Of a stretch of 64,000 bases of DNA, positions 1,275-33,783 are shown piece by piece. Every line of letters begins with the position of its first letter. The stretch's first letter is position 1. The stretch spans positions 90 through 64,089 of the forward strand of contig JBAXOD010000004.1 of the NCBI GenBank assembly GCA_037133435.1, in the 5' to 3' direction. The DNA comes from Candidatus Moraniibacteriota bacterium. GTDB lineage: Bacteria; Patescibacteriota; Minisyncoccia; Moranbacterales; UBA1568. A program made the position numbers and the translations under genes. The notes under the pieces are model-generated. The model had not been told where the DNA came from. It did not search any database and was given only the letters and a program-made list of their open reading frames with translations.

Positions 1275-1579
1275 CGTATCGCTCTCAAATCTCACCGCGA
1301 TATGAAGCCGAAAAATTCTGTTGGTCGTCTGAAATTCGTACATTTCAGTTACCCCGACCGTCTCGCTACGCCCGCCGCCATGACTGCCGTCGGGCTGTCG
1401 ATCGTCGCGGGCGGACAAACCCTTCAAGTTTCGTCAGGTTTGTTAGCGGGATCCTCATTTCAGTCGGATACCCGTCCTCGATTTTCAGGGTTTTTCACCG
1501 AGAGGGTGACCAACCTCTGGTCGGCGCTCAAACGAAATTTTCGGATGTACAGTTCGACATGAGACTTGAGAGAGATACT
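1275..1579. mobile_element. MITE-like element, copy A (~305 bp), with 20-bp terminal inverted repeats AGTATCTCTCTCAAATCTCA / TGAGATTTGAGAGAGATACT (left TIR slightly diverged in this copy).
   Basis: Termini and internal segments (cgtcctcgattttcagggtttttcaccgagagggtgaccaacctctgg; gaccgtctcgc...gatcgtcgcgggcgg) are shared with copies at 1948-2296 and 27035-27362. No ORF inside. Confidence 0.6.
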
Positions 1580-1580
1580 C

Positions 1581-1744
1581 AGAGCCTATCCGTTAGGGTC
1601 TCCGTCACGAGCTGTACGATCTTCGAGCGGAAAGGCGAGTAACCAGCAGAGCCTATCTGTATAATAAGGCGCCAAGAGGTACGCGCGCATGCACCGAAAA
1701 TCGTAGGGGCAGTCAGTAAATATATTCCTATTGGGATAGCCTCT
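1581..1744. repeat. Structured ~160-nt repeat, family 2, copy 1, with 17-nt terminal inverted repeats AGAGCCTATCCGTTAGG ... CCTA(A/T)(C/T)GGGATAGCCTCT. Candidate ncRNA or second MITE family.
   Basis: About 80% identical to 14863-15019. The first 32 nt are identical (agagcctatccgttagggtctccgtcacgagc). Internal differences are partly compensatory (cgAgtaaccAg vs cgGgtaaccCg). It abuts MITE copy A. Confidence 0.5.
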
Positions 1745-1947
1745 TATAATAGTAACATAAAAATCCGATTATTTGAAATGTGGCACTGGTAGGAGATGAG
1801 GTTAGTAAAGGTGTTTCTTTTTGACTAGGATAAAGTCAGAATTGGCATTCCATATTTTAGAAAGTGAAAATATTCAGTTCACAATCACAAGCTCCCTTGC
1901 CTTCTCATTATTAAAGGGCAATCCCCTTTTCCGGAAGACAAGTTATA

Positions 1948-2296
1948 AGTATCTCTCTCAAATCTCAACGCCTCTATAAGCCAAAAAATCCGCTTACCGG
2001 CTGAAATCCGAAAATTTCGGCTGCCCGCCTGCAACACTTTGCCTAGCAATGCGGGCAGGCCCGTCCGCAACGATTGCGTAGCGATTCGGGCGGACCCCGA
2101 CCGTCTCGCCAAGCGATCGTCGCGGGCGGGCAAACCATTCAAAAATCGTCAGGTTACGACAGCGGGATCCCCATCTCCTTCGGATACCCGTCCTCGATTT
2201 TCAGGGTTTTTCACCGAGAGGGTGACCAACCTCTGGTTGGCGCTCCTATCGAAATTTTCGGATGTACAGCTCGACATGAGATTTGAGAGAGATACT
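1948..2296. mobile_element. MITE-like element, copy B (~349 bp), with perfect 20-bp TIRs.
   Basis: Starts agtatctctctcaaatctca at 1948 and ends tgagatttgagagagatact at 2296. Internal palindrome ccgcctgcaacactttgcctagcaatgcgggcagg. Confidence 0.65.
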
Positions 2297-2325
2297 TACT
2301 ACACACTACCTGCTACCGTCTTCCG

Positions 2326-2375
2326 TTGTAAGTTGTGAGTTGCAGGTTGTGAGTTGTAAGTTGTAAGCTGTAAGT
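2326..2375. repeat. Heptamer-like tandem repeat (TTGTAAG / TTGTGAG, about 7 units) immediately 3' of the uvrA stop.
   Basis: gttgtaagttgtgagttgcaggttgtgagttgtaagttgtaagctgtaagtt. Confidence 0.6.
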
Positions 2376-5330
2376 TCAACGAAGCGCCCGCTTCAGATAC
2401 TCCCCCGTATACGACCCAGAGGTCTTGGCAACGTCTTCGGGCGTGCCGGAAGCGACGATCCTCCCGCCGCCCACGCCACCCTCGGGACCGATGTCAATGA
2501 TCCAATCAGCCGATTTAACGAAATCCATGCTATGTTCGATGACGAGCACCGAGTGCCCTTTGTCCACGAGCCGGTTCAATATCTCCAGGAGTTTCTTCAC
2601 GTCCTCATAGTGCAGGCCGATGGTCGGTTCGTCGAGGAGATACATCGTACGTTCGAGGTGCGGGCGGTAGAGCTCGCTCGCGATTTTTACGCGCTGCGCC
2701 TCACCGCCGGAAAGCGTCGTGGCCGCCTGACCGAGCTGCAGGTAGCCGAGGCCGACCTCTTCGAGCGTGCGCAAGCGGTCGGCGATCGCCGGAATATCCT
2801 TGAAAAAGATATGTGATTCCTCTATCGTCATCGCGAGTATGTCCGCGATGTTCTTGTGCTTGTATTCTATCTCGAGGGTCTCCTTGGTGAAGCGCTTGCC
2901 GTTGCAGACGTCGCACGGCACGTACACCGTCGGCAAAAAGTGCATCTCGACGGCGATGAATCCGTTCCCTTCGCAGGTCTCACACCTGCCACCGGGACGA
3001 TTGAACGAGAAGCGCCCAGCCTTCCACCCGCGGACACGCGCCTCCTCGGTCGAGGCGAACAGGTCGCGGACATGCGTCCACGCGCCGGTATACGTCGCCG
3101 GGTTGGAGCGTGGTGTCCGGCCGATCGGGCTCTGATCGATCAGCACCGCGCGGGACAGGTACTCCGTACCCAAAAACGAGTCGCAGTTCACGACCTTGTT
3201 CGAACGATACCGCCGGTCGAAACGTTTCTGCAAATTCGTCCACAGGATCTCGTAGAGAAACGATGACTTCCCCGAGCCCGACACACCGGTGATCGCGACA
3301 AACCGGCCGAGCGGCACGTCGACAGAGAGGTTTTTGATATTGAAAATATCCCCCCCGCGGACGCGAAGCGTCCCCTTGTCACGGGATCTCCTGATTTTGG
3401 GAATCTCGATCCGTTCCTCGTTTCGCAGGTACGAGAGCGTAAGCGAACCGGATATGTTCTTTTCCGCCAACAAAAGTTCGTCGAGCCACCCCGAGACGAC
3501 GACTTCGCCGCCATGCACTCCGGCCTTGGGGCCCAGGTCCACGAGATAGTCCGACGCGAAAATCGTATCCTCGTCGTGTTCGACGACGATAATCGTATTG
3601 CCGAGGTCGCGCAGACTCTGCAATGTCTTGATGAGCCGGTCATTGTCACGACTATGCAGGCCGATCGTCGGTTCGTCGAGCACATAAAGCGCCCCGACCA
3701 GACGACTCCCAAGCTGGGACGCGAGCCGGATACGCTGTGCCTCGCCGCCGGAAAGCGTATTCGCCCGCCGATCGAGCGTCAGGTATTCCAGTCCCACATC
3801 GAGGAGGAATTCGAGCCGGTTGCCGATCTCGCGGAATACGACCGCCGCGATCTGCCGCTCGCGCTCGGTGAGCGTGATACCGTCGAAGTACGACTTCGCG
3901 TCCGCGATCGTCATACCGGTCAGCTCGACGATATTCTTCCCGCCTGCAACGCTATGCGTTTTTTCTTTTTCAATATTATTTGTCTCATTCAATCCAATAT
4001 TTTCTTTCGGCACATCACTCTTTTTCCGTGTAGCATTGCGGGCAGGACCGCCCACATACACGTAGAGTGCCTCTTCACGGAGTCTCGAACCGTGACAGAC
4101 CTCGCACGGCTCATTGCCGAAGAAGTGCTTGGTGCCGAGTCCGTTACAGGCCGGGCACGCGCCGTACGGCGAGTTGAACGAGAACAGTCGCGGTTCGATC
4201 TCGGGATACGAGAATCCATCGTACGGACAGGAATATTTCGACGAAAGCACCCGGTCTTTCCCACCGATCGTGATACCGATCACGCCTTCGGCTTCCTCGA
4301 GCGCACGGTCCACCGCCTCGCGCAACCGTTCCTCGGACGACTGCGGATACTGTGCGAATTCGCGGAGCGGGATCTCGTCCACGACGAGACTGATATCGTG
4401 TTTCTTGTTCTTGGCCATGACGATCTGCTCTCGCAGGCTGTGACGTTTCCCGTCGATCACCGCCTCGGCGAATCCCTTACCGAGCGCGTCATAAAGAAGC
4501 TGGTAGTATTCCCCTTTGCGCCCGTGCACGACCGGTGCCGTGAGCAGAATCGTATCGGATTTCGCGAGCGTTTTATGTACGGCGATTTCAGCCTTGGCCA
4601 TCTCGCCGACCAAACCCAATATCTCGTCCGGAGCGAGCTTCTCGATCTCGCGCCCGCACACCAGACATCGCGGCCGGCCAAGCCTAGCAAACAGCACGCG
4701 CAGATAATCGTAGATCTCGGTGACGGTCGCGACCGTAGATCGCGGATTGCGCCCCGCCGATTTCTGGTCGATCGAGATAGCCGGCGAAAGCCCCGTGATC
4801 TCGTCAACGTCCGGCTTCTGCATGGTATTCAAAAACTGCCGTGCGTATGCCGAAAGGCTCTCCACGTACCGCCGTTGCCCCTCCGCAAAGATCGTATCGA
4901 ACGCGAGCGACGACTTGCCCGATCCGGAAAGTCCGGTAAACGCGATCATCCGGTTGCGCGGCATCGAGACGGAAATATTCTTCAAATTGTGCGTCCGCGC
5001 GCCCGACACGGTGATCCACTCGCTCGGCTTCCCCGCCTCAATTCTTCCTGCTCCCCTCTCAGAGGGGAGCTGTCGAGTCTGCTTGTCACGTCGCTCGCGA
5101 GCAACGTGATGAAGTGAGGGGTGGTCCCTTCCTACTCCCTTTTCCCTGTCTCCTGCTCCCCTGCCGGAGGGGAGCTGTCTCGTACTCGAGACTGAGGGGT
5201 GGGAGGACTCAACTTCAGACTGTCTCGTTTTTTTCGCCACACCCAAAACCGCCGGTTCCATTTCCGGTTTCATTGCCTTCTTCGCTCGCTTTTCCGCCGC
5301 CTTATCGGCCGCCGTTTTCTTCTTGGTCAT
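2376..5330 (-). CDS. uvrA: Excinuclease ABC subunit A (UvrA), with a Lys-rich N-terminal extension and an internal ~36-aa insertion.
   Basis: Core starts at EWITVSGARTHNLKNISVSMPRNRMIAFTGLSGSGKSSLAFDTIFAEGQRRYVESLSAYARQFL. Two ABC signature regions (LSGGEAQRIRLASQLGS, LSGGEAQRVKIASEL) and zinc-finger cysteines are present. The start is assigned to ATG at 5330 (MTKKKTAADKAAEKRAKK). The true start is uncertain because the region 5049-5203 between that ATG and the conserved core is made of palindromic repeat elements. The track ORF extends to 5519. Confidence 0.9.
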   Translation of the reverse strand: MTKKKTAADKAAEKRAKKAMKPEMEPAVLGVAKKTRQSEVESSHPSVSSTRQLPSGRGAGDREKGVGRDHPSLHHVARERRDKQTRQLPSERGAGRIEAGKPSEWITVSGARTHNLKNISVSMPRNRMIAFTGLSGSGKSSLAFDTIFAEGQRRYVESLSAYARQFLNTMQKPDVDEITGLSPAISIDQKSAGRNPRSTVATVTEIYDYLRVLFARLGRPRCLVCGREIEKLAPDEILGLVGEMAKAEIAVHKTLAKSDTILLTAPVVHGRKGEYYQLLYDALGKGFAEAVIDGKRHSLREQIVMAKNKKHDISLVVDEIPLREFAQYPQSSEERLREAVDRALEEAEGVIGITIGGKDRVLSSKYSCPYDGFSYPEIEPRLFSFNSPYGACPACNGLGTKHFFGNEPCEVCHGSRLREEALYVYVGGPARNATRKKSDVPKENIGLNETNNIEKEKTHSVAGGKNIVELTGMTIADAKSYFDGITLTERERQIAAVVFREIGNRLEFLLDVGLEYLTLDRRANTLSGGEAQRIRLASQLGSRLVGALYVLDEPTIGLHSRDNDRLIKTLQSLRDLGNTIIVVEHDEDTIFASDYLVDLGPKAGVHGGEVVVSGWLDELLLAEKNISGSLTLSYLRNEERIEIPKIRRSRDKGTLRVRGGDIFNIKNLSVDVPLGRFVAITGVSGSGKSSFLYEILWTNLQKRFDRRYRSNKVVNCDSFLGTEYLSRAVLIDQSPIGRTPRSNPATYTGAWTHVRDLFASTEEARVRGWKAGRFSFNRPGGRCETCEGNGFIAVEMHFLPTVYVPCDVCNGKRFTKETLEIEYKHKNIADILAMTIEESHIFFKDIPAIADRLRTLEEVGLGYLQLGQAATTLSGGEAQRVKIASELYRPHLERTMYLLDEPTIGLHYEDVKKLLEILNRLVDKGHSVLVIEHSMDFVKSADWIIDIGPEGGVGGGRIVASGTPEDVAKTSGSYTGEYLKRALR
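3938..4046. repeat. AT-rich palindrome-flanked insertion inside uvrA, kept in frame (encodes ARNATRKKSDVPKENIGLNETNNIEKEKTHSVAGGK).
   Basis: Flanking inverted repeats gcctgcaacgctatgcg ... cgtagcattgcgggcagg resemble the internal palindrome of the MITE family and the one at 61121-61154. The interior is AT-rich, unlike the GC-rich host gene. It falls exactly where E. coli UvrA has no residues (between YVYV and the NIVELTGMTI-like segment). Confidence 0.55.
5049..5125. repeat. REP-like double-hairpin element, family R1, copy a, carrying a nested sub-palindrome. It lies inside the putative uvrA 5' extension, in frame.
   Basis: ctgctcccctctcagaggggagc tgtcgagtctgc ... gaagtgaggggtgg. Nested cacgtcgctcgcgagcaacgtg. 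Confidence 0.55.
5151..5203. repeat. REP-like element, family R1, copy b.
   Basis: tgctcccctgccggaggggagctgtctcgtactcgagactgaggggtgggagg. Confidence 0.55.
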
Positions 5331-5409
5331 CGAGACATGATACCACGGATTAAACAAGATGGCAACAATCAAAAAAACAGTATTTTCACCAAAGAGAATA
5401 GAGCTCACA

Positions 5410-7074
5410 TTATATCTTCTTGGAATGTTCGAGAGTTCCAAGAATAACGAACAAGAACAACAATCCGAAGTTCGAGTCCCAAAGGAAGTGATCGAGAAGA
5501 AGGCTTGGGATGAGTACAAGGAATATTTCTACATTCGGAAAGACAGTTGTTCGTTTGAACGATTCCGGTAACCAGGTTGAGATTCCCGCTCCTCGATGAG
5601 GTCCGAGGACAGGCTTCGCGGGAATGACAACATTTTTGGTTTTCTTTTGCAATGATGACACTTCTCTATTTTTCGGTATGAAAAGTGAAAAGAAAAAACA
5701 CAGCGAAAGGACGAGTCCGGGAATGCCGAGTTCGGAACAAACGAGAAGCAAGACGTCATGGGCGGGTTGGATATCCCAGATCGGACGATCAGGATGTAAT
5801 CGGATCAGTTCCGCTGTCTCGTTTCCTACACCGACTCCGAGGAAGGAATGGGCACGGACGATTTGGAAAGCGTCACGATAGGTCGACATCCGGTCGACGA
5901 CCGATCCTTCCCTATCGACGACTCCCCCGTCGAAACGAGGAAAGACGGTCTCATGCAGTATGCCTGCAAATATCACGGTCGAAATGACGATGGTCGAGAA
6001 ATAAGCACATCTATACCGTCTTGTCATCCCGGGCTTGCCACGGTCGCTCGCGAGCGAACGTGACTTGACCCGGGATCCAGTATTTATAATTTCCTGGATT
6101 CCGGCTCGTAGGCCGGAATGACAAATACATTTGTTCCATGCTGTTTTCAAAGAGAGAAACACAAACCCGAGCGCGAACCCTCCCCACGCGAGACGGGAAA
6201 AAGAAACAATGAGACCCAGAAGAATGATGAGGATACCGAAGAGACTTGCGACCCATTGAAAATAAGCATACCAACCACACCCCTCCTCAATCCTCACCAC
6301 ACAAAGAGGAGGAGGCAAAAATTTTCCAAGCCATGTTAATGTATTATAGTTGCAAATATTTAAGGTTGCCCGCTCCCCTTTCAGAGGGGAGCTGTCGAGT
6401 CTGCGAGACTGAGGGGTGAGAACAAAGGAATCAATCCGCTCAGTTACTATCAACAGAACCACCGCAAGAAACAGCCCGTATAAGTTCGGATGGGGAAAGG
6501 TTCCATACGCTCGCAGGAACCGTCCCGTATCGTTCTTCAACACCGACGTCCCCGACTGCCACGATTCGTATGCGCTCGTCCCGAGAAGCGTCGAAGAAAA
6601 CGTCTCCTGCGTCAGGAATTGTCCGATTCCGATGACTGACTGGATCATTGCCGCCACGAAGAGCACCAAGACGATTTGTTTCATCTTCCCCCGTCGTACC
6701 AGATCACGCGTCATAATGAACGCATCCGCGGCGAGCAGGATCTTCACGAACGTATACCCGGCCAAAGCAGTATCCTGCGCCCAGATGATCGACAGACCCG
6801 ACCAGAGAACGAAAAGCAGAAGAAACGCATCTGACTTTCGCTCCCGCCACATTTTTTTCATCCGGACACCGATGGATTCGCTTTTCAATGCCTTCGCCTT
6901 CAGTAGCGCTCCGAGAACGATCGCACACGCCAGAACCAAGGATGACGCATATATCCCGATCGTCCCGTACTGCCACTTCCCACCCCCGATAATCGGCTCA
7001 CGCCACAAATACACCGTCTGGAACGGTAGGATGAAGAGGAACAGGAAAAAGAGATCGTCCTGAAGCTTTTGCAT
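5410..7074 (-). CDS. O-antigen ligase / Wzy_C-family polymerase-ligase. The 554-aa ORF contains two in-frame palindromic-element insertions.
   Basis: C-terminal half has the Wzy_C signature SFSRLAWGGFALGFVFL ... DRMSTYRDAFQIVRAHSFLGVGVGNETAELIRLHPDRPIWDIQPAHDVLLLVCSELGIPGL. It is a polytopic membrane protein. Region 6000-6420 of the ORF is built from repeat elements R2 (6020-6082) and R1 (6372-6420) without breaking the frame. Confidence 0.7.
   Translation of the reverse strand: MQKLQDDLFFLFLFILPFQTVYLWREPIIGGGKWQYGTIGIYASSLVLACAIVLGALLKAKALKSESIGVRMKKMWRERKSDAFLLLFVLWSGLSIIWAQDTALAGYTFVKILLAADAFIMTRDLVRRGKMKQIVLVLFVAAMIQSVIGIGQFLTQETFSSTLLGTSAYESWQSGTSVLKNDTGRFLRAYGTFPHPNLYGLFLAVVLLIVTERIDSFVLTPQSRRLDSSPLKGERATLNICNYNTLTWLGKFLPPPLCVVRIEEGCGWYAYFQWVASLFGILIILLGLIVSFSRLAWGGFALGFVFLSLKTAWNKCICHSGLRAGIQEIINTGSRVKSRSLASDRGKPGMTRRYRCAYFSTIVISTVIFAGILHETVFPRFDGGVVDREGSVVDRMSTYRDAFQIVRAHSFLGVGVGNETAELIRLHPDRPIWDIQPAHDVLLLVCSELGIPGLVLSLCFFFSLFIPKNREVSSLQKKTKNVVIPAKPVLGPHRGAGISTWLPESFKRTTVFPNVEIFLVLIPSLLLDHFLWDSNFGLLFLFVILGTLEHSKKI
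6020..6082. repeat. Palindromic element, family R2, copy a (hairpin gtcatcccgg...ccgggatccagt with nested cgctcgcgagcg).
   Basis: cttgtcatcccgggcttgccacggtcgctcgcgagcgaacgtgacttgacccgggatccagtattt. A related copy lies at 35136-35167. The tail CCAGTATTTAT recurs at 34862 and 60972. Confidence 0.5.
6372..6420. repeat. REP-like element, family R1, copy c (inside the ligase ORF).
   Basis: cgctcccctttcagaggggagctgtcgagtctgcgagactgaggggtgag. Confidence 0.55.
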
Positions 7075-7189
7075 GTGGCAAATCCTTTATTATTGCCCAT
7101 TATAGCACTTTCTGGTAGAGTAAGGACAGTCGGATATACTATCATTTCATCTCCTTTTCGACATTCCCGTTTCTCTATTCCCGTATCCT

Positions 7190-7789
7190 ATGATTCTCAT
7201 CACCCTTTCCGGCACCGACGGGTCCGGAAAATCGACCCAGCTTGCGCTGCTTCGCGACTATTTCGAACGAATGGGCAAGAAAATCGCGTATTTTCATGCG
7301 GTTGAATTCTCGCTTGCCAACCGATGGCGTCGCAAAGCGAGTGGCGAGACGGAATTTACATCCGGGAAGGATGCGGCTGTCACCAGGGCGTCATTCGCTT
7401 CCTTGTTCCTTCGCAGGTTATTTCTTGTGATTGACCTGTTCCGATTCCGGTTTCTGCTGAATTCTCTTCGAAAAGACGGGACCGATATCCTCCTCTCGGA
7501 TCGTTACTTCTACGACTCGTTCATCAATATCGACTATCTTTCCGGATCGAAGAACGCACGTTGTCTCGCCTTGAAGATGATTCCACGCCCCGATACCGCT
7601 TTTTTTCTCGATGCAACGCCCGAAGCGATCATGCGTCGTGAACGCGTTCCGGAGCAGGGTATCGATTACATCACCGCGAAACGTGATCTCTTCATGTCGA
7701 AACGGGCCGAATGGAACCTCGTCCGAATCGATGCGAACAGAACCAAAGAAGAGGTCTATGCCTCCATCCTGGAAACATTGAATCGCTAA
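7190..7789 (+). CDS. Thymidylate-kinase-family P-loop kinase (dTMP kinase-like).
   Basis: ITLSGTDGSGKSTQ P-loop and LLSDRYFYDSF (DRY motif), length 199 aa. It is divergent from the ligase gene. Confidence 0.55.
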   Translation: MILITLSGTDGSGKSTQLALLRDYFERMGKKIAYFHAVEFSLANRWRRKASGETEFTSGKDAAVTRASFASLFLRRLFLVIDLFRFRFLLNSLRKDGTDILLSDRYFYDSFINIDYLSGSKNARCLALKMIPRPDTAFFLDATPEAIMRRERVPEQGIDYITAKRDLFMSKRAEWNLVRIDANRTKEEVYASILETLNR

Positions 7790-7798
7790 TACACCTCC

Positions 7799-9271: not shown

Positions 9272-9284
9272 TCGGCAGACTATC

Positions 9285-9325
9285 AAAAAAATACGCCTGT
9301 CTTTTCAGAGAGAGGCGTATCGGAA
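9285..9325. terminator. Bidirectional intrinsic terminator between the convergent flippase (+) and 9349..9789 (-).
   Basis: aaaaaaatacgcctgtcttttcagagagaggcgtat : A-run / hairpin / T-rich. Confidence 0.45.
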
Positions 9326-9348
9326 TTTCATATTTTCCTTTTTCAAAA

Positions 9349-9789: not shown

Positions 9790-9924
9790 TGTGAAGGTTC
9801 CGGTTGGGTTCCCGCAAGCGCCGCGGTGGGCAAAGCCGTTTTTCAGCATCAGTATAGCGTATTTTTCAGAAATGAAAAGGCATATCCCAAGAATATGCCT
9901 GTTTTCAGTGTGATGGGTTACAGC

Positions 9925-12033: not shown

Positions 12034-12044
12034 ATCTAGTTCGA

Positions 12045-14684: not shown

Positions 14685-14862
14685 ATGATGAGCACAGATT
14701 CGTTGACGGATGGAATACGTTTTCTACGACCCGCACTACAGCCGCCACAATAGCCGAATAGTCTTTATTATAGCGGTTTTTCATCTTTTGTACAGACCAT
14801 GAATTCACACGTTCTGCCAAAGCATCATCCTCAAAATTCCAGTCTTTCAAAAAGGTTGGTTT

Positions 14863-15019
14863 AGAGCCTATCCGTTAGGGTCTCCGTCACGAGCCGTACG
14901 AGCTTCGAACGGAAAGGCGGGTAACCCGCGGAGCCCTATCGAGATAAGGCGACAAGGGGTACGCGCGTGTACGCCGAAGATCGTAGGCGCGGGAGGTATG
15001 TTCCTAACGGATAGGCTCT
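14863..15019. repeat. Structured repeat, family 2, copy 2 (perfect 17-nt terminal inverted repeats).
   Basis: agagcctatccgttaggg ... cctaacggataggctct. It lies in an intergenic position between two minus-strand glycosyltransferase genes. Confidence 0.5.
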
Positions 15020-16572
15020 TAATTCCGACTCCCCGAATTTCCCCATCGAAACACGACGACGTCGCCGCGGATCAATGGATCACTCTGCCGGTCCATGTTT
15101 TTGTACATGAAGTTCTCGGCATCGCGTGAGACGTAGTCCGTATCGTTATCGGACATGATTATCCAACCGGTCGGATACTGGCTCATAAGCGACTGCAGTT
15201 CCGCGACGGAAAGTTTCGCGGTCGAAAGTTCACCGCCGAAATCGTAGACCGGCGCGTGCATGCCGCTCAAGTAGTAGTTCCGGAAATTCCGCGTAACGAC
15301 GACTTCCCCTTTCGTGGCGTTCTTTCGGAAAAATTGGAATATCTTCCGGTAATTCGCGCTACTCGAAGTCGACGTCTGATGATACGTGTTGTTCTCCTCG
15401 AAGAAATATCCCCAGTTGGGGACCAAGATCGCGAGCGCGACGGTCGACACGAGGACGGCATGCTTCCATTTCGACGAAAGCAGCGCCTTCGTCTCGCGTA
15501 CAACGGCATATCCTCCGGCGGCGATGAGGATCATCAGGAACGATTGCGCGAAGAAGATATACTGATGCCCCTCGTTTCGTCGCCAGAACCATATCGCCAT
15601 GACAAGCGGCACGAGAAACGACGAGAGCAGCCAGACGGATTCCCGCTCCTTTCCGAATTTCCTGATGAGCATCCACGCCCCGAGAAGGGCGAGGACGATC
15701 GCGAAGATCGGTTCACCGTAATCGGAAACCACGTACCCGAGATACGAATAGTGATTGTCGAACCAGGTAAGCGTCCCGAGAGAGAATTTCACTTTCTCAG
15801 GCACCGCGATCACGAGGGCGAGCGCAGCCGCGATCCCGGCCGCCGCCGTCACCACATACTTATTCCGATACCCGTTCCCCTTCCGCCACTCGATCACGGC
15901 CATCGCGAGGACATAGACACCGAAGATCGGGAGGATATTGGCCGTCAGCTGATGCGTCATCGAGCTCGCGATGCCGAAGAAAATCGTCGGAACCAGAAAG
16001 AGGGCATTCGTCCCCGTCTTTTTCCAGATCGTGCGGACGACCTTCAGTTTCCCCTTGTACTCGTTCTCATAAAAAAGGAACAGCGAGGACGAAAACAGGA
16101 GGAATACCGGAAAAAACATCGCGTACATGCGGAGCCTCCGATCGAACTCGAGTCCGGAAACGGAAACCGCGAAAAGGAACGCGGCGAACAGCCCGACCGT
16201 ACGCCGACCCGAAAACTTCCAACCCGCGAAAAACATGGCCGCGATCGAGATCACGCCCCACAGTGCCGACACCGATCGGGCATTCGCCTCCGTCGGGGAC
16301 AGAAATCTGAAAACTTGTGCCACCTGCCACTTGTAGATATTGGCTCGTTCATCGCGGGCATCGTTCCCGTTCACGATCGCCGCCTTTCCGTCATTGAAGT
16401 CCCACGCTTTCCACTCCCCGGTCTTGAAATAACCGTAGGAAGAATTGATGTCCAGGAACTCGTCAGCGACGAACGAGTTATTTCCGAGTCCGAAGAACCG
16501 GAGCGCCGCACCGAGCACGAGAATCGCCACGAATATCTGGAGTTTCCTTTGCCGTATCAGTTTCATCAACAT
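15019..16572 (-). CDS. GT-C glycosyltransferase, PMT/ArnT (GT39/GT83-like) family, number 1 of 3.
   Basis: LRFFGLGNNSFVADEFL motif typical of PMT_2/ArnT. 517 aa, polytopic. Confidence 0.75.
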   Translation of the reverse strand: MLMKLIRQRKLQIFVAILVLGAALRFFGLGNNSFVADEFLDINSSYGYFKTGEWKAWDFNDGKAAIVNGNDARDERANIYKWQVAQVFRFLSPTEANARSVSALWGVISIAAMFFAGWKFSGRRTVGLFAAFLFAVSVSGLEFDRRLRMYAMFFPVFLLFSSSLFLFYENEYKGKLKVVRTIWKKTGTNALFLVPTIFFGIASSMTHQLTANILPIFGVYVLAMAVIEWRKGNGYRNKYVVTAAAGIAAALALVIAVPEKVKFSLGTLTWFDNHYSYLGYVVSDYGEPIFAIVLALLGAWMLIRKFGKERESVWLLSSFLVPLVMAIWFWRRNEGHQYIFFAQSFLMILIAAGGYAVVRETKALLSSKWKHAVLVSTVALAILVPNWGYFFEENNTYHQTSTSSSANYRKIFQFFRKNATKGEVVVTRNFRNYYLSGMHAPVYDFGGELSTAKLSVAELQSLMSQYPTGWIIMSDNDTDYVSRDAENFMYKNMDRQSDPLIRGDVVVFRWGNSGSRN

Positions 16573-21604: not shown

Positions 21605-21605
21605 A

Positions 21606-22582: not shown

Positions 22583-22595
22583 TATACGCACATCG

Positions 22596-24029: not shown

Positions 24030-24039
24030 ATCCGACATT

Positions 24040-25024: not shown

Positions 25025-25312
25025 TTTGACAGGGGCCGAATGCGCCCTTATACTGGCGCATATGAACTTCACAGTGAATACGACGAAGGGCATCGCGTGG
25101 TGGACCGCTTCCTGAATGAGGCGGATATTTGACGTTGTCACCCGATATCCCGCCTCTTTCCAGGGCGGTTTTATATTTGTTTATTCTATTCTTATGTCCC
25201 CGAACACATACTTCCTCTATCGCGGTGCATCGACCTTTTCCTGGCGACGCTCGATTCGGCTTTTCTATGCGATATTATCGCGTGTATTTCATTCCATTCA
25301 TATTCAAATTTT

Positions 25313-26545: not shown

Positions 26546-26810
26546 TAGCATTTCTAAATATTATTCCCTATACGATTGTGTTTGCGAGCCCGCACTCGGG
26601 CTGCCTGCCCCGCGCATGCCAGGGTGGCAATTCAGCCCCCTCGGTCTTTGCGAGGGAGTCCTCGACCGCGGCAATCCAGAATGAGAGAATATGACATGAA
26701 CCGCCACATCTCACCTTTCGCGAAAGGCGGAACTCGCGGAGACAAAGGGAGCAGATTTCTTAGAAATGGTAAAATCATCACTTTCACTCGATCCGACTCA
26801 GTTCGTAAAT

Positions 26811-26846
26811 GTTACATCTGATACGCTATCGCGTATCAGATGTAAC
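26811..26846. repeat. 36-bp perfect palindrome, variant of the 40-bp palindrome family (compensatory arm changes).
   Basis: gttacatctgatacgctatcgcgtatcagatgtaac vs gttacatttgctacgctatcgcgtagcaaatgtaac at 62657 and 63948. Confidence 0.6.
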
Positions 26847-26919
26847 TCCGAATGACCCTGTTTTCAACCAATAAGACATAATATATCCCCTGATTCCGGT
26901 TCGATGCTTTACTGATTCC

Positions 26920-26968
26920 GGAAGGGCGCGAACGGACGACCGTCCGTTCGCGCCCTTCCCTGTTTTCC
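26920..26968 (+). terminator. Strong intrinsic terminator (19-bp GC stem plus T-run) on the plus strand.
   Basis: ggaagggcgcgaacggacgaccgtccgttcgcgcccttccctgttttcc. Confidence 0.6.
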
Positions 26969-27034
26969 GCGCATTCCTGAACAACACAGCTAACCAAAAA
27001 AAAGACACACTGAGTGTCCGAGGTTTCTCTTCTT

Positions 27035-27362
27035 AGTATCTATCTCAAATCTCACCACGATAATAAGCCAAAAAATCCGTTTGTCGTCTGAAATCCGTAC
27101 ATTTCGGCTGCCCGCCCGAATCGCTACGCGAAGCGTTGCGGGCGGGCCCAGACCGTCTCGCCAAGCGATCGTCGCGGGCGGGCCCAGACCGTCTCGCCAA
27201 GCGATCGTCGCGGGCGGGCCCAGACCGTCTCGCCAAGCGATCGTCGCGGGCGGACAAACCCTTCAAATCTCCTCGGGTTACGACAGTAGCCCTCGACGAT
27301 TTTCAGTGTTTTCGCTCGAAATGTACGGATTTCAGTTCGACATGAGATTTGAGAGAGATACT
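27035..27362. mobile_element. MITE-like element, copy C (~328 bp), containing a 36-bp x3 internal tandem repeat.
   Basis: TIRs agtatctatctcaaatctca / tgagatttgagagagatact. Internal (cccagaccgtctcgccaagcgatcgtcgcgggcggg) x3 at about 27140-27250. Confidence 0.65.
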
Positions 27363-27369
27363 TATTCCT

Positions 27370-27747
27370 TTACGAAAAATGTCGGATTTCGCGAACGGAT
27401 AGCCATTGTTTGAAATAGGTGCACCGCCCTGCCTCGTCGAGAGAAACCTGAAAAATGCCGTCCATCTCCACCCGGTTCCCGGTAGCTAAGACCGTTCTCG
27501 TCAGTCGAAAATGAATGATGCCGCATTTCTCGTTCTCCGCAAGAATCTCGTATGAATACTCGATATCCTTCTGATATTCCGGCGCGACTTCCCAGAGTCT
27601 CCGGATCGCATGGATATCCAGGCAAGGTTTGTCGAAAACCGTCTCATAATATGCACAATCCTCCGCGATCGTCGACATGACCCGCTCGACATCGCGGTTC
27701 TTCCAACCCTCCATGAACGCGTCCATCCATGCACTATATTTATTCAT
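27370..27747 (-). CDS. NTF2-like / SnoaL-like small protein.
   Basis: 125 aa, MNKYSAWMDAFMEGWKNRDVERVMSTIAEDCAYYETVFDKP... pattern. Confidence 0.4.
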   Translation of the reverse strand: MNKYSAWMDAFMEGWKNRDVERVMSTIAEDCAYYETVFDKPCLDIHAIRRLWEVAPEYQKDIEYSYEILAENEKCGIIHFRLTRTVLATGNRVEMDGIFQVSLDEAGRCTYFKQWLSVREIRHFS

Positions 27748-27762
27748 AATGAGTCAATTCTT

Positions 27763-28902
27763 CTATAATACTCCCCGATATTCCTCCACATACCGCTGAG
27801 ACACTGATTTCCAACTCATCGATTCCGCCTTCGTGCGGCTGGCAACGGCCATACGGGCGCGGAGAGCGGGGTCGGCGATCAATGTGCCGAGCTTGGCCGC
27901 GAGGTCTTCCGGTGATTCCTTCTCCGCGAAAAATCCGTTCTCCCCGTCCGAGACGAGTTCTTCCGTCCCGCCAGTCACGGTCGCCACGATAGGAAGTCCG
28001 GATGCGATCGCCTCGAGCACGGTATTGCTCATCCCTTCGTTGAGTGACGGCATGCAGAAAATATCACATTCACGATATATTTCCGGAAGGTCGTCATGCG
28101 GTATAAGCCCGCGGAATTCCACGCGATCCGTCACGCCTGACTCGGCCGCGACCGATTCCAGATTCGCCCGTTCCCCACCCCCGCCAACGACGATCAACCG
28201 TGCAGATCCGGGAAGCGACTCCATCGCACGGATCAAAAACCGCATTCCTTTGCGCGGGGTAAGCCGCGAAACGACCAGGATACGTACGATACCGTCGGAA
28301 ATTCGATTGCTTTCCGGCATGAACTGAATCGTATCCACGCCGTTTGGTATGACGGGAATATCACGCTTCGGATCGGTCACAAGTGCCAAATCGCGCAAAC
28401 CGTCGCTGTTCGACACGACCCGCGAGGATCGGTGCCACACCAGTCGCACGATGGGACGAAGGATCGCATAGAGTACCGTAAACCGTTCACTGTATCCCGG
28501 GACGTCCGCACCCCGGAGCGAGACGACATATGGTAACCGGAACTCGAACCCGAGCACCATGGCCAGAAATCCGCACGGGACTGTGAAAAACGCGTGTATC
28601 AGGTCGAAACCGCGTTCCTTGCGGATGAGCTTTCGGGAAAAGAAATATGCCTTCCACGAATACGTGATCAGGTCGGTACGCGACTGATAGTGGAGATTCT
28701 TCGGATTCTTGCCGATCGGCAACCGATGAATGATGATGCGCTCCCCGATCGTCTCGCGGGAATACTCGTTTCCTACGGCCGAAGTGACAAGATGCACTTT
28801 GAGATCCGGTACCGACGCGAACTCACGCAAAAGATACGCGGTCGCATTCCCCGCCCCACCCCCGAGCGGAGGATACTCGTAATTCAGAAACAATACCTTC
28901 AT
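27763..28902 (-). CDS. GT4 glycosyltransferase.
   Basis: MKVLFLNYEYPPLGGGAGN... EGMSNTVLEAIASGLPIVAT (E-X7-E region). Confidence 0.8.
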   Translation of the reverse strand: MKVLFLNYEYPPLGGGAGNATAYLLREFASVPDLKVHLVTSAVGNEYSRETIGERIIIHRLPIGKNPKNLHYQSRTDLITYSWKAYFFSRKLIRKERGFDLIHAFFTVPCGFLAMVLGFEFRLPYVVSLRGADVPGYSERFTVLYAILRPIVRLVWHRSSRVVSNSDGLRDLALVTDPKRDIPVIPNGVDTIQFMPESNRISDGIVRILVVSRLTPRKGMRFLIRAMESLPGSARLIVVGGGGERANLESVAAESGVTDRVEFRGLIPHDDLPEIYRECDIFCMPSLNEGMSNTVLEAIASGLPIVATVTGGTEELVSDGENGFFAEKESPEDLAAKLGTLIADPALRARMAVASRTKAESMSWKSVSQRYVEEYRGVL

Positions 28903-28924
28903 AGAATGACCAATAATCAAAGCG

Positions 28925-29242
28925 TCAATCCGCCGCGTGTTCCTTCATCTCCAATTTCGATATGATTACGGAGAGAATCTTCTTCAGTTCGACCGACTCC
29001 AGTTCCAGCCCCTCAATCCTTCGGCTCATATCCGGATTGGCCTCAATAATCAGCTCCAGCCAGAAATGAGTCTCCTTAGCTTCTTTCCTTGAAATACGCA
29101 GGCGCATGAGTCTGTCCTTCTTGCCCAAGGCATCGTTCGCTTCACGATAATTCGCGCCCACTGAACCTGCCGACCGTATTATCTGACTGACAAGCTTATC
29201 ATTGACGATATTTACAGGGAGCTCCCGGCACATCCGAATCAC
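28925..29242 (-). CDS. Four-helix-bundle protein (TIGR02436, 23S-IVS-type), N-terminally truncated.
   Basis: LVSQIIRSAGSVGANYREANDALGKKDRLMRLRISRKEAKETHFWLELI matches helices 2-4. The first ~25-aa helix is absent. GTG start, with an AT-rich repeat-laden region upstream. Confidence 0.6.
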   Translation of the reverse strand: MIRMCRELPVNIVNDKLVSQIIRSAGSVGANYREANDALGKKDRLMRLRISRKEAKETHFWLELIIEANPDMSRRIEGLELESVELKKILSVIISKLEMKEHAAD

Positions 29243-29405
29243 ACGCTTTGCAAATATAAGAGTGCGCTCTTCTCAATCGAAATCTTTATGAGTTGTCGGG
29301 TCTTGATTCTTACTCATCACTCTCTCTTTTGATGATTGGATTTCGGTTGTTCTTCTCCCCATTGGTGATTGGAACTTGATTCTTGGTTATTATCGCTTAG
29401 GCAGT

Positions 29406-30731
29406 CTAGCGACCTATAGAATGGTATTCGAATCCAAGCCCTTTCATTTTCTTCGGATCATACAAGAGACGTCCGTCGAATACGACCGGCTCGCTCAGTG
29501 ACTTTTTGATACGGTCGAAGTCCGGCGTGCGGAATTCCTTCCATTCGGTGACGACGATCATCGCGTCGGCGCCCGTTAGCGCCTCATACTTGTCATCGAA
29601 ATACGTGATAGACGGATTGTCACCGAAATATTCCGGCGTCTTCGCCATCTTCATCGCCTCCGGATCGTGCGCCCGGATGGTCGCTCCACGCTCGATGAGT
29701 ATGTTGACGACCGATATCGCCGGAGATTCGCGCATATCGTCGGTTCCGGCCTTGAATGCCAATCCCCATATGCCGAACGTTCTCCCGGTCAGGTCCTTGC
29801 CGAATCTGTCCTCAACCATTCCCGAGAGCACGAGTTTCTGCTTCTCGTTGGTATCCAAGGTCTGTCGTAACATGCGGGCATCGTATCCGAAATCGGCCGC
29901 CGTCTTCACCAACGCCTTCACATCCTTCGGAAAACAGGAGCCGCCGAACCCGGCGCTCGCATAAAGGAATGCCTCGCCGATCCGCGGATCGGCACCCATG
30001 GCCTTGCGGACATTCTCGTAATCGGCACCGGCCTTCGAGCAGATATTCGCCAATTCGTTCGAAGCCGAGATCTTCACGGCCAAAAAACAGTTCGAGGCAT
30101 ACTTCACGATCTCGGCCGTCTTCGCGTCCATCGCGAAAAACCGTCCTTCGCGACGCGTGAACGGCGCGTACAGTTCCCGCATCGTCTCGATCGCCTTCGG
30201 ATCGTCGGACCCGACCACGATCCGGCTTGGTTCCAAAAAGTCCTTGACCGCCGTACCCTGCGCCAAAAACTCGGGATTGCTCACTACCTGGAACGGGATC
30301 TCGACGCCACGTATTTCTAATTGCTCTGCGATCTTTGCCGCGACGAGTTCCGCGGTTCCGACCGGCACCGTCGACTTGTCGACCACGACGATCTCGTGAT
30401 CCATGCATCGTCCGAGGTCGGTCGCCACCCCCAGAACGTGAGAAAGGTCGGCGCTCCCGTCCTCGTTCGGCGGAGTACCGACGGCGATGAAGACGATGTC
30501 GCTTCCCTTGAGGGCCGTCTCGAAATCGGTCGTAAACGTGAGCGTCCCGTTCTTCAGGTTCCGCAAGACGAGTTCGTCGAGTCCCTTCTCGTGAAGCGGC
30601 GCTTTCCCGGACTCGAACTTGTCGATCTTGTTCTGGTCCTTGTCGACACAGACGACGGTATTGCCCATTTCCGCGAAGCACACGCCCGTCACCGAACCGA
30701 CATACCCCGTCCCAATCACTGCGATATTCAT
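29406..30731 (-). CDS. ugd: UDP-glucose 6-dehydrogenase.
   Basis: MNIAVIGTGYVGSVTG..., GFGGSCFPKD catalytic Cys. 441 aa. Confidence 0.9.
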   Translation of the reverse strand: MNIAVIGTGYVGSVTGVCFAEMGNTVVCVDKDQNKIDKFESGKAPLHEKGLDELVLRNLKNGTLTFTTDFETALKGSDIVFIAVGTPPNEDGSADLSHVLGVATDLGRCMDHEIVVVDKSTVPVGTAELVAAKIAEQLEIRGVEIPFQVVSNPEFLAQGTAVKDFLEPSRIVVGSDDPKAIETMRELYAPFTRREGRFFAMDAKTAEIVKYASNCFLAVKISASNELANICSKAGADYENVRKAMGADPRIGEAFLYASAGFGGSCFPKDVKALVKTAADFGYDARMLRQTLDTNEKQKLVLSGMVEDRFGKDLTGRTFGIWGLAFKAGTDDMRESPAISVVNILIERGATIRAHDPEAMKMAKTPEYFGDNPSITYFDDKYEALTGADAMIVVTEWKEFRTPDFDRIKKSLSEPVVFDGRLLYDPKKMKGLGFEYHSIGR

Positions 30732-30744
30732 ATGGATGCGATTA

Positions 30745-31686
30745 CTACGAGTTGATTGTCTCTCGTATCGAATAGTTCATTCTCCCGCGCTGCCGATAGT
30801 AGGTCTTCACCGAGATGTCGACGAGGATGCCGAAGACGAAAAGCTGCACGCCGACGAGGATGAGCAACGTTCCCACGAGCGGCCAGATGCGTTCCGAAAG
30901 CGATGCCCCGAAGAAAACCTTGTCGAGGAACATCCAGAACAGTATGGCCAGGCCGAGCATGACGGACACGATACCCGTCCCTCCGAAAAGATGGAGCGAA
31001 CGGTACGAGTATTTCCTCCAGAACCACAGGAACACCATGTCGACGAATCCCTTGATGCCCCGTTTCCAATTATATTTCGTCTTGCCGTGGACGCGCGGGT
31101 GATGCGATACCTTCACCTCGGTCACGCGGAATCCGTCGAGCAGCAGGAGAGCCGGAATGAATCGGTGCATCTCCCCGAACAGATCGACGCCGTCGAAGCA
31201 TTCCCGTCGGAACGCTTTCAGGCTGCATCCGGAATCATGGATACCGTCCTTGATGAGCAGTCCGCGCAGCACGTTCGCCGTCCGCGAAAAGAATTTCTTC
31301 ATGAAAGAATCCTTGCGCTTGTGCCGCCAACCGGACACGACGTCGTATCCCGCTTCGATCTGTTCGATAAGCGCGGCGAAATCCGCCGGATCGTTTTGCA
31401 GGTCGCCGTCCATCGTGATGATGATATCCCCGGTCGCGGCCTTGATGGCGGCATCGAACGCGGCCGTCTGCCCGAAATTCTTGCGGAAGCACACGAGCCG
31501 GAGCGGCGACAGTCCTTCGCAATCCGCGACCGTCTTGTCCGTCGAACCGTCATCGACGAAGATGATCTCGTACGGTTTCCCCATCCTGTCGAGCGACTCC
31601 TTGATCCGTCGATGCTGCTCCCTGACGTTCCCCTCCTCGTTGTAGAGCGGCACCACCACCGACACATACGGCCTTGATCCGTCCAT
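30745..31686 (-). CDS. GT2 glycosyltransferase (polyprenol-phosphate hexosyltransferase, GtrB/DPM1-like) with 2 C-terminal TM helices.
   Basis: YVSVVVPLYNEEGN... IITMDGDLQNDP. Confidence 0.8.
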   Translation of the reverse strand: MDGSRPYVSVVVPLYNEEGNVREQHRRIKESLDRMGKPYEIIFVDDGSTDKTVADCEGLSPLRLVCFRKNFGQTAAFDAAIKAATGDIIITMDGDLQNDPADFAALIEQIEAGYDVVSGWRHKRKDSFMKKFFSRTANVLRGLLIKDGIHDSGCSLKAFRRECFDGVDLFGEMHRFIPALLLLDGFRVTEVKVSHHPRVHGKTKYNWKRGIKGFVDMVFLWFWRKYSYRSLHLFGGTGIVSVMLGLAILFWMFLDKVFFGASLSERIWPLVGTLLILVGVQLFVFGILVDISVKTYYRQRGRMNYSIRETINS

Positions 31687-31796
31687 AAGGCGAAAACATG
31701 AATGGTATACTCGTATTCTAGCGACAAAAACGCTTCCTGGCAAACCTCAAGCGTAAGAAAAAAGCCCCGTCTTGAGGCTTTTCGACGGAAGCTGAT

Positions 31797-32519
31797 TCAA
31801 CGCCGTCTCCGTATTATCCAGAACGCGAACGCGACGATGGCAATCGCACCCAGGGATCCGACAACGAGTACGAATATCCTACTATTGTCCTGTGTCGTCG
31901 TCGAAACCGGTTGCGTCGGTGCAACATCGGTCGGCTGCGGAGGCATGCCGACGGGCGTATAATCGCGGAGTTGCGTTTCTCCGGTATTCGGATTCTTGAT
32001 GGTGCCGCCGCTCTTATCGAGCAGTGTCTTCGTCTCCGGGCTGAACTCAACTTTGCCCGACGCACAGTCGGAAAGACAAGTATTGATATTCTCGCCCTTC
32101 TCGTACTCGCAAATACCATTCGCATTACAGGTCACGAAATCCGCAAGACTCCCTTCGAGAAGAACCGCCCCGGTTTTGACCAAAGTGAGTTGGAACCGAT
32201 TCACGATACTGAAATACGGGACCTCGAACGAATTCTTACCTTGCGGAATATCGAAGTGCGTGGAAACCGCTTTCGCCCCGCTCACATCGAACATATCAAG
32301 ACTGTACGGACCGGCGTGCGTCGACTTCGAAAAACCCAACAATGAAAATGCGGGGTCATCAATTTTCGCTATCGTTTTGGATACAGACGCATCCAGTGTG
32401 ATCTTATCTCCATTTCGTTCAAGATGAAAAACCCAGGCATCCTCGGCAGAAGCCTTAGAGAAAGGTGTCAGCGCGAGAAGAAGGAACGAAGCGGCAATCA
32501 GGCCTAGACGATATTTCAT
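31797..32519 (-). CDS. Exported protein with a signal peptide and a C-terminal TM anchor.
   Basis: MKYRLGLIAASFLLLALTPFSKASA ... IFVLVVGSLGAIAIVAFAFWIIRRRR. Confidence 0.4.
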   Translation of the reverse strand: MKYRLGLIAASFLLLALTPFSKASAEDAWVFHLERNGDKITLDASVSKTIAKIDDPAFSLLGFSKSTHAGPYSLDMFDVSGAKAVSTHFDIPQGKNSFEVPYFSIVNRFQLTLVKTGAVLLEGSLADFVTCNANGICEYEKGENINTCLSDCASGKVEFSPETKTLLDKSGGTIKNPNTGETQLRDYTPVGMPPQPTDVAPTQPVSTTTQDNSRIFVLVVGSLGAIAIVAFAFWIIRRRR

Positions 32520-32532
32520 AAGAATGCCGTTA

Positions 32533-33660
32533 CTATTTACAGTTGCTATAGTAGGTCTCGACACGACCGCAATAATCATTTGTACTTTTGGCACAATTAT
32601 TCGGTTGCCCGGTATTCCAGCAGGAAGCGACCTGTCGGATATCGGTCGTAGTGCATCTACTCTTCTCATGATTTATAAGCCATGCCGTACAGTTCATATC
32701 AAGCGTGATATCGTTCTGAATCTTCGTGCACGTCTCAGTCTGAGTGCCAGTTATACCACACGCCGTCCTATTCGCCGGCAACAGCTGACCGTATCCGCAT
32801 GAACCTTTCCCATCACTCGAGACCGATTTATTGCAACCTTCACCACCCTGAATAATAGCCATGATGACGTTCGAAGCAACGCCGAATGTATTATTTTTTA
32901 TAGCATTGACAATCGAGGCATTGGTGGCGCATGTTCCGTTCGTACAGGTCCCCGTCCCACCGCTGCCCGCCGACGTATACGTGTACGGCACGTTCGTGTT
33001 CGCGTTGGTGAGCGCCGTCGACGTCGTGAGCGACGTATCGGATTCGATCGAGGCAACCGTTACGGACTGGCCGTTGATAGTGATCGTATCGCCGACTTTG
33101 AGCGTCGACTTGAACGTGGTACCCGTACCGGTAACCGTCGTCGAGCCCGCCTCATTCGATACGGTACCGACTCCGTTCTGCGTCGTCGTACCGACACCCG
33201 TTCCCGTCGCCGTACCGGCCGACGACGTCGTATCGCAGTTCATCTGGAACCCGTGAGCGATACTGAACGACGCCCCGACCCCGAAATCGGTTTTGGCGGG
33301 CATGAGCCAATAAATGATCAGGTTGACGATAAGCCAGGCGAACAGTACGATCGCGATACCGGAAAGCGTGGTCCACAGACCCTTCTTCGCCGTGGTGATA
33401 AGTCCCTCGTTCCCGGCGGAGACGATATAGAGCACGCCCATCGCCGTGATGATGGACAGGCCCAGAAACATCATCACCGCGAAGAAATAGTCGACGATGT
33501 TCTTGATGCCGATGAAGAAATGACAGAGCGTGCACGGCGCTTCCGTGGGACCGCCGCACGGAACGACACCCGCCGCCCGAACCAAAGAAGGCGCGAATGC
33601 GACCGCCAATATGACAAGAGACACGGCGAGGACGACGCGGAACGATTTCGATCGGATCAT
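32533..33660 (-). CDS. TrbC/VirB2-like pilin-family protein with a long Thr/Gly- and Cys-rich C-terminal extension.
   Basis: Signal peptide, then CGGPTEAPCTLCHFF..., then two TM helices with SAGNEGL...KKGLW...IVNLIIYWL (VirB2-like pattern), then a ~230-aa T/G/C-rich domain. Confidence 0.45.
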   Translation of the reverse strand: MIRSKSFRVVLAVSLVILAVAFAPSLVRAAGVVPCGGPTEAPCTLCHFFIGIKNIVDYFFAVMMFLGLSIITAMGVLYIVSAGNEGLITTAKKGLWTTLSGIAIVLFAWLIVNLIIYWLMPAKTDFGVGASFSIAHGFQMNCDTTSSAGTATGTGVGTTTQNGVGTVSNEAGSTTVTGTGTTFKSTLKVGDTITINGQSVTVASIESDTSLTTSTALTNANTNVPYTYTSAGSGGTGTCTNGTCATNASIVNAIKNNTFGVASNVIMAIIQGGEGCNKSVSSDGKGSCGYGQLLPANRTACGITGTQTETCTKIQNDITLDMNCTAWLINHEKSRCTTTDIRQVASCWNTGQPNNCAKSTNDYCGRVETYYSNCK

Positions 33661-33733
33661 AACTGCAAGTGATTCGTTTTGTATTTACCGTCTACCGTCG
33701 ACACTCTTTCACGCGTATATCGTACCATATCTA

Positions 33734-33783
33734 AGTATCTATCTCAAATCTCACGACGCTCATAAGCGGAAAAGAGAGATACT
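33734..33783. mobile_element. Internally deleted MITE remnant (left TIR plus a partial right TIR, about 50 bp).
   Basis: agtatctatctcaaatctcacgacgctcataagcggaaaagagagatact. Confidence 0.5.

Follow-up and report, generated by a model that had tools for sequence, protein, structure and literature searches.

What are the four short repeats with shared inverted ends that lie in a 64,000-nucleotide stretch of a Candidatus Moraniibacteriota genome (assembly GCA_037133435.1, contig JBAXOD010000004.1, positions 90 to 64,089; this whole stretch is called the window below), and what moved them there? An initial annotation had read them as a family of MITEs (miniature inverted-repeat transposable elements). 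When we followed the family through the window and through public assemblies, this interpretation was supported, with corrections: the repeats are very probably non-autonomous DNA transposons (MITEs) resident in Moraniibacteriota-like bacteria of the candidate phyla radiation (CPR). Target-site duplications, a pair of filled and empty sites, and more than 140 copies at unrelated intergenic positions all bear out the proposal that a noncoding element spread by independent insertions.

Copies in the window

A search of the window with the 20-mer AGTATCTCTCTCAAATCTCA returned seven matches at up to 3 mismatches, against 0 expected by chance. Six of these ends pair, at 1275/1579 (copy A), 1948/2296 (copy B), and 27035/27362 (copy C), and the seventh is a lone left end at 33734 (copy D), which agrees with the three full copies and one internally deleted copy first described. 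All four are placed on the plus strand. The terminal inverted repeats (TIRs), reported as perfect over 20 bp, proved to be 19 bp long and perfect in copy B only; the mismatches in left and right repeats number 2 and 1 in copy A and 1 and 0 in copy C, and there is 1 in copy D.

Copy B (1949 to 2295, 347 bp) is flanked by TAA and TTA. Copy A (1276 to 1578, 303 bp) has the left repeat GTATCGCTCTCAAATCTCA and the right repeat TGAGACTTGAGAGAGATAC, and its flanks, TAC and TCA, point to a target-site duplication that has decayed. In copy C (27036 to 27361, 326 bp) the one mismatch is in the left repeat; a SnoaL-like gene (27370 to 27747, minus strand) has its stop codon 8 bp from the copy, which lies downstream of it and is enclosed by TTA on both sides (27033 to 27035 and 27362 to 27364), the only intact target-site duplication among the four copies. 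Copy D (33735 to 33782) is a 48-bp internally deleted derivative with TAA and TGA as flanks. It consists of the left repeat and about 20 nt of left subterminal sequence, followed by only GAGAGATACT of the right repeat, a remnant of the last 9 nt (GAGAGATAC). The earlier description of a 50-bp derivative at 33734 to 33783 is borne out.

In aligned columns, copies A, B, and C share 74 to 80% identity with one another, and their sets of modules differ. No similarity extends to the flanks of the four copies, save for an overlap between those of A and B, which are neighbors 370 bp apart. Since the flanks are unrelated, the copies represent independent insertions and not a segmental duplication, the outcome that had been named in advance as fatal to the MITE interpretation. 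The only open reading frames (ORFs) across the copies, at 1212 to 1562 and 27081 to 27413, both start with TTG and run through repeat modules. They are not conserved between copies, and the element thus lacks coding capacity, as a MITE should.

Element ends and target site

The anatomy of the family was derived from 47 complete copies (from a genome scan and the window) that were aligned with their flanks, and 172 ends were scored. The element proper runs from GTATC to GATAC and has 19-bp inverted repeats of the form GTATCT[C/A]TCTCAAATCTCA. The outermost A/T of the 20-bp repeat proposed earlier belongs instead to a 3-bp TNA target-site duplication. Position -1 is A and position -3 is T in 162 of the 172 ends each, while position -2 is variable (T 74, A 72, C 13, and G 13), so that TTA or TAA is found at 137 ends and TGA or TCA at 19. 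The same TNA stands on both sides in 36 of the 47 copies, as TTA in 20, TAA in 13, TGA in 2, and TCA in 1. The TCA and TGA duplications rule out a duplication of TA, which had been suggested as a possibility. At position -4 there is a C in 108 of the 172 ends, giving a palindromic target, C-TNA-G. The 19-bp ends are conserved in all copies and are nearly invariant across a set of 17 core copies from 11 assemblies.

The 47 copies all lie between genes, and they do so in either orientation. Some 12 flanks touch the end of an ORF at a distance of 0 or -1, where the TAA stop codon is itself the duplicated target.

Direct proof of insertion is provided by a filled and empty pair in ELA282, a Moraniibacteriota metagenome-assembled genome (MAG). 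The empty site gCTAAGataagc occurs at two loci (L018 and L063; L numbers denote the loci around copies) within another repeat, and its filled counterpart (L073) reads gCTAA[GTATC..GATAC]TAAGataagc, with insertion at C-TAA-G. No empty sites were found for the copies of the window itself, where the orthologous intergenic regions of ELA282 are too diverged to align. ELA282 does carry a copy in the same intergenic region as copy C, with a TCA instead of a TTA duplication and different flanks, and we read the two as independent insertions.

Host range and copy number

We scanned one genome per species with the query GTATCTNTCTCAAATCTCA and obtained at least 106 matching stretches; a metagenome scan gave at least 120. 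At least 140 complete copies exist in public assemblies, almost without exception those of Moraniibacteriota/Patescibacteria, and the genome matches listed come nearly all from MAGs labeled Candidatus Moraniibacteriota, Moranbacteria, or Patescibacteria. The genes of the window are 72 to 86% identical in nucleotides to contigs of ELA282, so the window comes from a CPR bacterium related to it. ELA282 has at least 90 ends (at least 45 copies). Many of these ends lie 30 to 80 nt from a contig end, and with many contigs terminating within a copy, the element probably breaks the ELA282 assembly.

The element is also carried by 11 TPA MAGs with the title "uncultured Bdellovibrionales bacterium" (loci L001, L004, L009, L024, L031, L035, L037, L041, L046, L050-L053, L058, L062, L072, L074, L078, L097, L100, and L105). 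Loci from 9 of the 11 have genes in common with Moraniibacteriota/Patescibacteria contigs at 52 to 83% amino-acid identity, and at some loci several adjacent genes match; judging from these similarities, the Bdellovibrionales label is probably wrong. A complete 185-bp copy with a TAA duplication lies at 4244 to 4428 of L028, between a tgt-like gene and a gene of 632 amino acids (aa), on a 34-kb contig (DATMYW010000051.1) that was binned to a Firmicutes soil MAG, "Candidatus Fimivivens sp." This contig shares only the element with the other loci, and either it is CPR DNA that was misbinned or the copy has crossed phyla.

Matches in Eubacterium, Paenibacillus, Bacteroidales, and Saccharibacteria were attributed to chance, as there was no similarity beyond the 19-mer, and so were four 19-mer matches without further similarity in viral contigs. 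The 185-bp core had no match among the plasmids of PLSDB. Within single genomes, the loci yielded no repeated DNA of more than 350 bp; the only such matches were orthologous ones between genomes.

Modular interior

The complete copies (47 in genomes and 92 on metagenome contigs) are 69 to 349 bp long, with a mode of 185 bp. Further length clusters lie at about 207, 221, 242, and 255 bp, and minis of 69 to 108 bp occur in other assemblies. The 185-bp core is a near-complete hairpin, its left arm containing a single asymmetric segment of about 32 nt. Optional hairpin modules account for the length of the window copies, which rank with the longest found. Among these modules is a 39-nt hairpin with the consensus TTTTTCACC[C/G]AGAGGGTGACCAACCTCTGGT[T/C]GGCGCTC in the 47-copy alignment. 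It is present as TTTTTCACCGAGAGGGTGACCAACCTCTGGTCGGCGCTC in copies A (1491 to 1529, plus strand) and B (2207 to 2245, plus strand) and in many copies elsewhere, and it is not found in copy C. Another optional insert is a segment ending in ...GGATACCCGTCCTC, and the third is a 36-nt GC-rich hairpin unit. With size classes that are modular in this way, the early description of the MITE as a mosaic of palindromic modules is apt.

The 36-nt unit forms arrays in two window copies. The initial annotation had recognized a threefold expansion in copy C without spacers; the tandem array is real, and it comprises four units (27111 to 27254, plus strand), one diverged and then three nearly identical, while copy B holds an array of three diverged units (2024 to 2059, 2060 to 2095, and 2096 to 2131, plus strand). 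Tandem Repeats Finder (TRF) reports 27134 to 27253 as 3.3 copies of period 36 with 98% matches. Copy A has a single unit of the 36-nt type (1353 to 1415, plus strand), split by some 27 nt inserted within it. Most copies in the family have no unit or one: it is found once in many copies elsewhere and twice in L213. The head-to-tail arrangement in exact 36-nt phase fits growth by replication slippage, by which the tandem units would have arisen. The core accepts further optional modules as well, and internal deletions give rise to minis such as copy D.

The alternative that survives best concerns these modules only. The 36-nt units, and possibly other modules, may be palindromes like REP (repetitive extragenic palindromic) sequences, moved into the MITE by a Y1 transposase of the RAYT type. 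The units are hairpins of -12 to -24 kcal/mol, and three stand outside any copy: one in the window (61120 to 61155, plus strand, 92% identical to unit 1 of copy B, and matching the solitary palindrome noted earlier at 61121) and one each at position 144 of L020 and position 2006 of L053. In ELA282, moreover, an IS200-like, RAYT-like Y1 transposase gene (Pfam Y1_Tnp; L064, 6687 to 7430) adjoins a truncated copy and a pair of AGGAGCTAAGCTCCT palindromes. However, 9 of the 12 units found outside the window are inside copies and at the same internal position, no Y1 gene was present in the window (nor any RAYT gene) or in any other locus examined, and the exact phase of the arrays suits slippage better than repeated insertion. 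The whole element has defined ends and a target-site duplication, which separates it from REP sequences and from bacterial interspersed mosaic elements (BIMEs); only the 36-nt modules are REP-like. We therefore regard a separate, REP-like origin of the modules as unlikely.

Evidence against a transposon and the search for a transposase

Several results weigh against the reading of the family as transposable elements, among them those of the search for an enzyme. The 2.2 Mb of copy-bearing DNA examined, which comprises the loci around copies, yielded no autonomous element, and no matching pair of ends more than 400 bp apart was found among the roughly 140 complete copies. For this search, matching ends were paired at up to 4 mismatches, weaker partners (up to 7) were sought within 4 kb of lone ends, and the DNA was scanned for GTATC/GATAC or GAGCC/GGCTC ends, spaced by 600 to 3000 bp, in which at least 14 of 20 bases are complementary. 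The pairs obtained were separate MITEs or chance matches, and the lone ends were truncated copies. The C-terminal motif of IS5-type transposases had 0 matches in six frames of the 2.2 Mb, in strict and relaxed regular expressions that would miss very divergent enzymes.

The transposase genes that do occur near copies did not qualify as cognate. A full-length IS30-family gene lies at 1300 to 2280 of the metagenome locus L185 (NF033563, 209 bits), and there are two more in L140 and L156, but none has ends related to the MITE end GTATCTNTCTCAAATCTCA; in L185, for example, the end reads ATTCATTCCGTTCTGGATTAGGACAC. A TIR match beside an IS110-family gene (L192) falls inside coding sequence and is due to chance. 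As first stated, the window has no cognate transposase; it does contain two transposase fragments, which lie head to head, a 48-aa DUF4372 N terminus of an IS4-like transposase (52336 to 52478, plus strand) and a 42-aa HTH_38 N terminus of an IS30-family transposase (52478 to 52604, minus strand), with ends unrelated to those of the MITE.

Two further points on this side concern age and conservation. With an intact duplication only in copy C and 74 to 80% identity between copies, activity in this genome may be old. Segments of the window copies are 92 to 97% identical to copies in assemblies whose genes are 72 to 91% identical to those of the window and whose intergenic DNA at orthologous positions could not be aligned with it. 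Such conservation of copies would not be expected of a purely neutral, vertically inherited parasite. The simplest reading of these identities would be that related Moraniibacteriota recently exchanged the element; the rival reading would be selection acting on the hairpin. Other lineages have the same ends with different arms that are internally compensated, which indicates that the sequence itself is not universally constrained.

On the preferred reading as MITEs, the element would move by cut and paste, with a DDE transposase acting in trans and binding the conserved 19-bp ends. The 3-bp TNA/TWA duplication, characteristic of IS5 elements of the IS1031 type, of PIF/Harbinger elements, and of Tourist MITEs (PMC2516522, PMC12730594), points to an enzyme of the IS5/PIF-Harbinger type, and, going by the duplication alone, the enzyme is probably of that type and the element Tourist-like. 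The alternative is an enzyme of the IS30 family, genes of which are present in these lineages.

It is also conceivable, if quite unlikely, that the element was moved between CPR cells, or between CPR bacteria and their hosts, by an enzyme encoded elsewhere, or that the hairpin has been co-opted for a host function in these streamlined genomes. Both ideas take the family to lack a cognate transposase in its host genomes and to stay nearly identical across species with a gene divergence of 10 to 25%. A phage, a host bacterium, or a domesticated single-copy gene would be candidate sources of such an enzyme. If this were true, the copy in L028 could mark a link between symbiont and host.

Hairpin conservation and tests for function

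We asked what the hairpin itself reveals, using the 17 core copies from 11 assemblies and RNAalifold. The predicted structure pairs the element end to end, and 24 of 63 pairs have changed on both sides. With this structure fixed, 95.6% of cells pair, compared with 85.8% in shuffled alignments and 28 to 47% when partners are slid, and there are 113 cells with double changes compared with 37.5 in shuffles. The subterminal and central stems are where the covariation sits; the 19-bp ends show hardly any variation. Folded as single-stranded DNA, the core reaches -48.8 kcal/mol (z -10.8), and copies C and B have z scores of -9.7 and -12.6.

These data raise the possibility that the element is a domesticated or otherwise functional hairpin, of RNA or of single-stranded or cruciform DNA, that is under selection and for which transposition was only the origin; stabilization of transcripts, termination, and regulation would be candidate roles in the host. 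Apart from the strong covariation between the arms, the greater conservation of copies than of genes between species speaks for it, as do the lack of a cognate transposase in the 2.2 Mb around copies and a weak promoter-like site that faces outward in the left arm of copy C.

The tests for function gave a different picture. Orientation relative to neighboring genes is unbiased, with 10 ++, 12 --, 10 convergent, and 5 divergent arrangements. G.T mismatches outnumber A.C mismatches by cells (43 versus 23), but the two are equal by stem columns (15 versus 15), so no single transcribed strand appears to be favored. Promoter and terminator matches were no commoner than in shuffles. Rfam 15 had no match at the gathering score in the window, and a search of 1200 to 2400 at E ≤ 1 gave only chance microRNA matches. 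Conservation is highest in the 19-bp end, as one would expect of a transposase binding site, and copy number and content vary freely. Taken together, these results make selection for a host function very unlikely. The pattern in the arms fits a constraint at the DNA level, or templated correction of arm by arm, at least as well as an RNA function. In a mobile element, the arms would be kept complementary because mobilization either requires or generates a snap-back hairpin; alternatively, templated repair would correct one arm against the other.

The two remaining explanations can be dismissed briefly. There is practically no chance that a segmental duplication or an artifact of assembly produced the copies, as the short distance between copies A and B might suggest, given their unrelated flanks, their divergence and differing modules, the TTA duplication that copy C has of its own, the occurrence of the family at hundreds of unrelated sites in independent assemblies, and the filled and empty pair in ELA282. 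Just as remote is a degenerate CRISPR-like array in copy C, which the 36-nt length and palindromic character of the units bring to mind; as the initial annotation had argued, the units abut at period 36 without spacers, and, in addition, they sit inside a transposon with its own ends and are single in copies elsewhere.

Neighboring repeats

Other repeats were observed in the window. The right end of copy A adjoins a copy of a second MITE-like family, which is found in the window at 1582 to 1743 and 14864 to 15018. Its members are about 155 bp long with 16- to 17-bp inverted ends (GAGCCTATCCGTTAGG), they likewise have a 3-bp TNA duplication (TTA/TTA at 14861 to 14863 and 15019 to 15021), and copies in several other assemblies are 90 to 94% identical. 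First-family copies adjoin the second family, with a TNA in common, in the window (copy A) and in L029, L081, L155, L143, and L122, so that the second family is a frequent insertion neighbor of the first.

The palindrome of the MITE had been said to flank an insertion in uvrA. The palindromes at that place (5050, 5155, and 6372) proved to belong to a separate family, GCTCCCCT-N4-AGGGGAGC followed by ...GAGGGGTGGGA, with copies at 5050 to 5070, 5155 to 5175, 6372 to 6392, 36176 to 36196, and 62465 to 62485. Two of its copies are in frame in a 5' extension of about 110 codons of the uvrA ORF, upstream of the canonical UvrA N terminus; they may be translated, or the real start of uvrA may be further downstream.

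A near-perfect palindrome of 41 nt, AAAGTTACATTTGCTACGC-TAT-CGCGTAGCAAATGTAACTT, occurs at 26808 to 26848, 62656 to 62696, and 63947 to 63987. In ELA282 the first copy has a conserved counterpart at the orthologous place, and the other two flank a 279-aa ORF (62929 to 63768, minus strand) without a Pfam match. There are two heptamer microsatellites, (GTTGTAA)x7.4 at 2325 to 2376, in the interval from copy B to the stop codon of uvrA, and (CTGTTAT)x3.9 at 61184 to 61210. Four 224-nt segments that are 61 to 77% mutually identical (47332 to 47555, 49949 to 50172, 56625 to 56848, and 58085 to 58308) lie in large minus-strand ORFs and probably represent a paralogous gene family.

Comparison with known systems and significance

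Among known elements, the family resembles the Tourist-like MITEs and their IS5/PIF-Harbinger parents (in bacteria, the IS1031 and IS427 groups) in its small size, its lack of an ORF, its TIRs, its 3-bp TNA duplication with a preference for TTA/TAA and a palindromic target, its strong hairpin potential, and its intergenic location. Insertion sites of 3 bp are described for the IS1031 group of IS5 (PMC2516522), and canonical Harbinger elements have 3-bp duplications (PMC12730594). It differs from them in its host, a CPR bacterium, in having no IS5-family gene or motif in the 2.2 Mb around its copies, and in its ends. The ends of the IS1031 and IS427 groups are typically GAG/GG, whereas those of the present family start with GTATC. 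Elements of the IS30 family make duplications of 2 to 3 bp, which suits the present family, and three distinct IS30 genes on copy-bearing contigs and the 42-aa fragment in the window belong to that family; as seen above, its ends are unlike those of the MITE.

The modular build recalls BOX of Streptococcus pneumoniae, Correia, ERIC, and RUP, which are high-copy intergenic hairpins with pairing end modules and a middle module of variable number. The present family differs in its clear transposon hallmarks, with precisely defined ends, a duplication of 3 bp, and an empty site; in Correia and RUP the duplicated target is TA and not TNA. The closest published parallel for a tandem array within a MITE, compared by description only, appears to be BrickBuilt of Porphyromonas gingivalis, a MITE with small inverted-repeat ends that is always intergenic and contains a spacerless 23-nt minisatellite in variable number (PMC4596501). 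Here the unit is 36 nt long, the host belongs to another phylum, and the array, which in BrickBuilt forms the main body, is an optional insert in a 185-bp hairpin core.

As a kind of element, the family is thus an ordinary MITE. What sets it apart is its CPR host, its copy number, the missing transposase, the covariation between its arms, and its conservation across species. The genomes of CPR bacteria (Patescibacteria), about 1 Mb in size, are commonly portrayed as streamlined, with little mobile DNA, and one MITE family at 45 or more copies in a single CPR MAG is unexpected in such a host. Our literature search found no paper on MITEs in these phyla, and the largest MITE census was based on RefSeq and left MAGs aside (PMC11602168). 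As a simple lineage marker, the 19-bp end exposes probable errors of taxonomy, and the element could serve to trace gene flow among co-occurring CPR populations.

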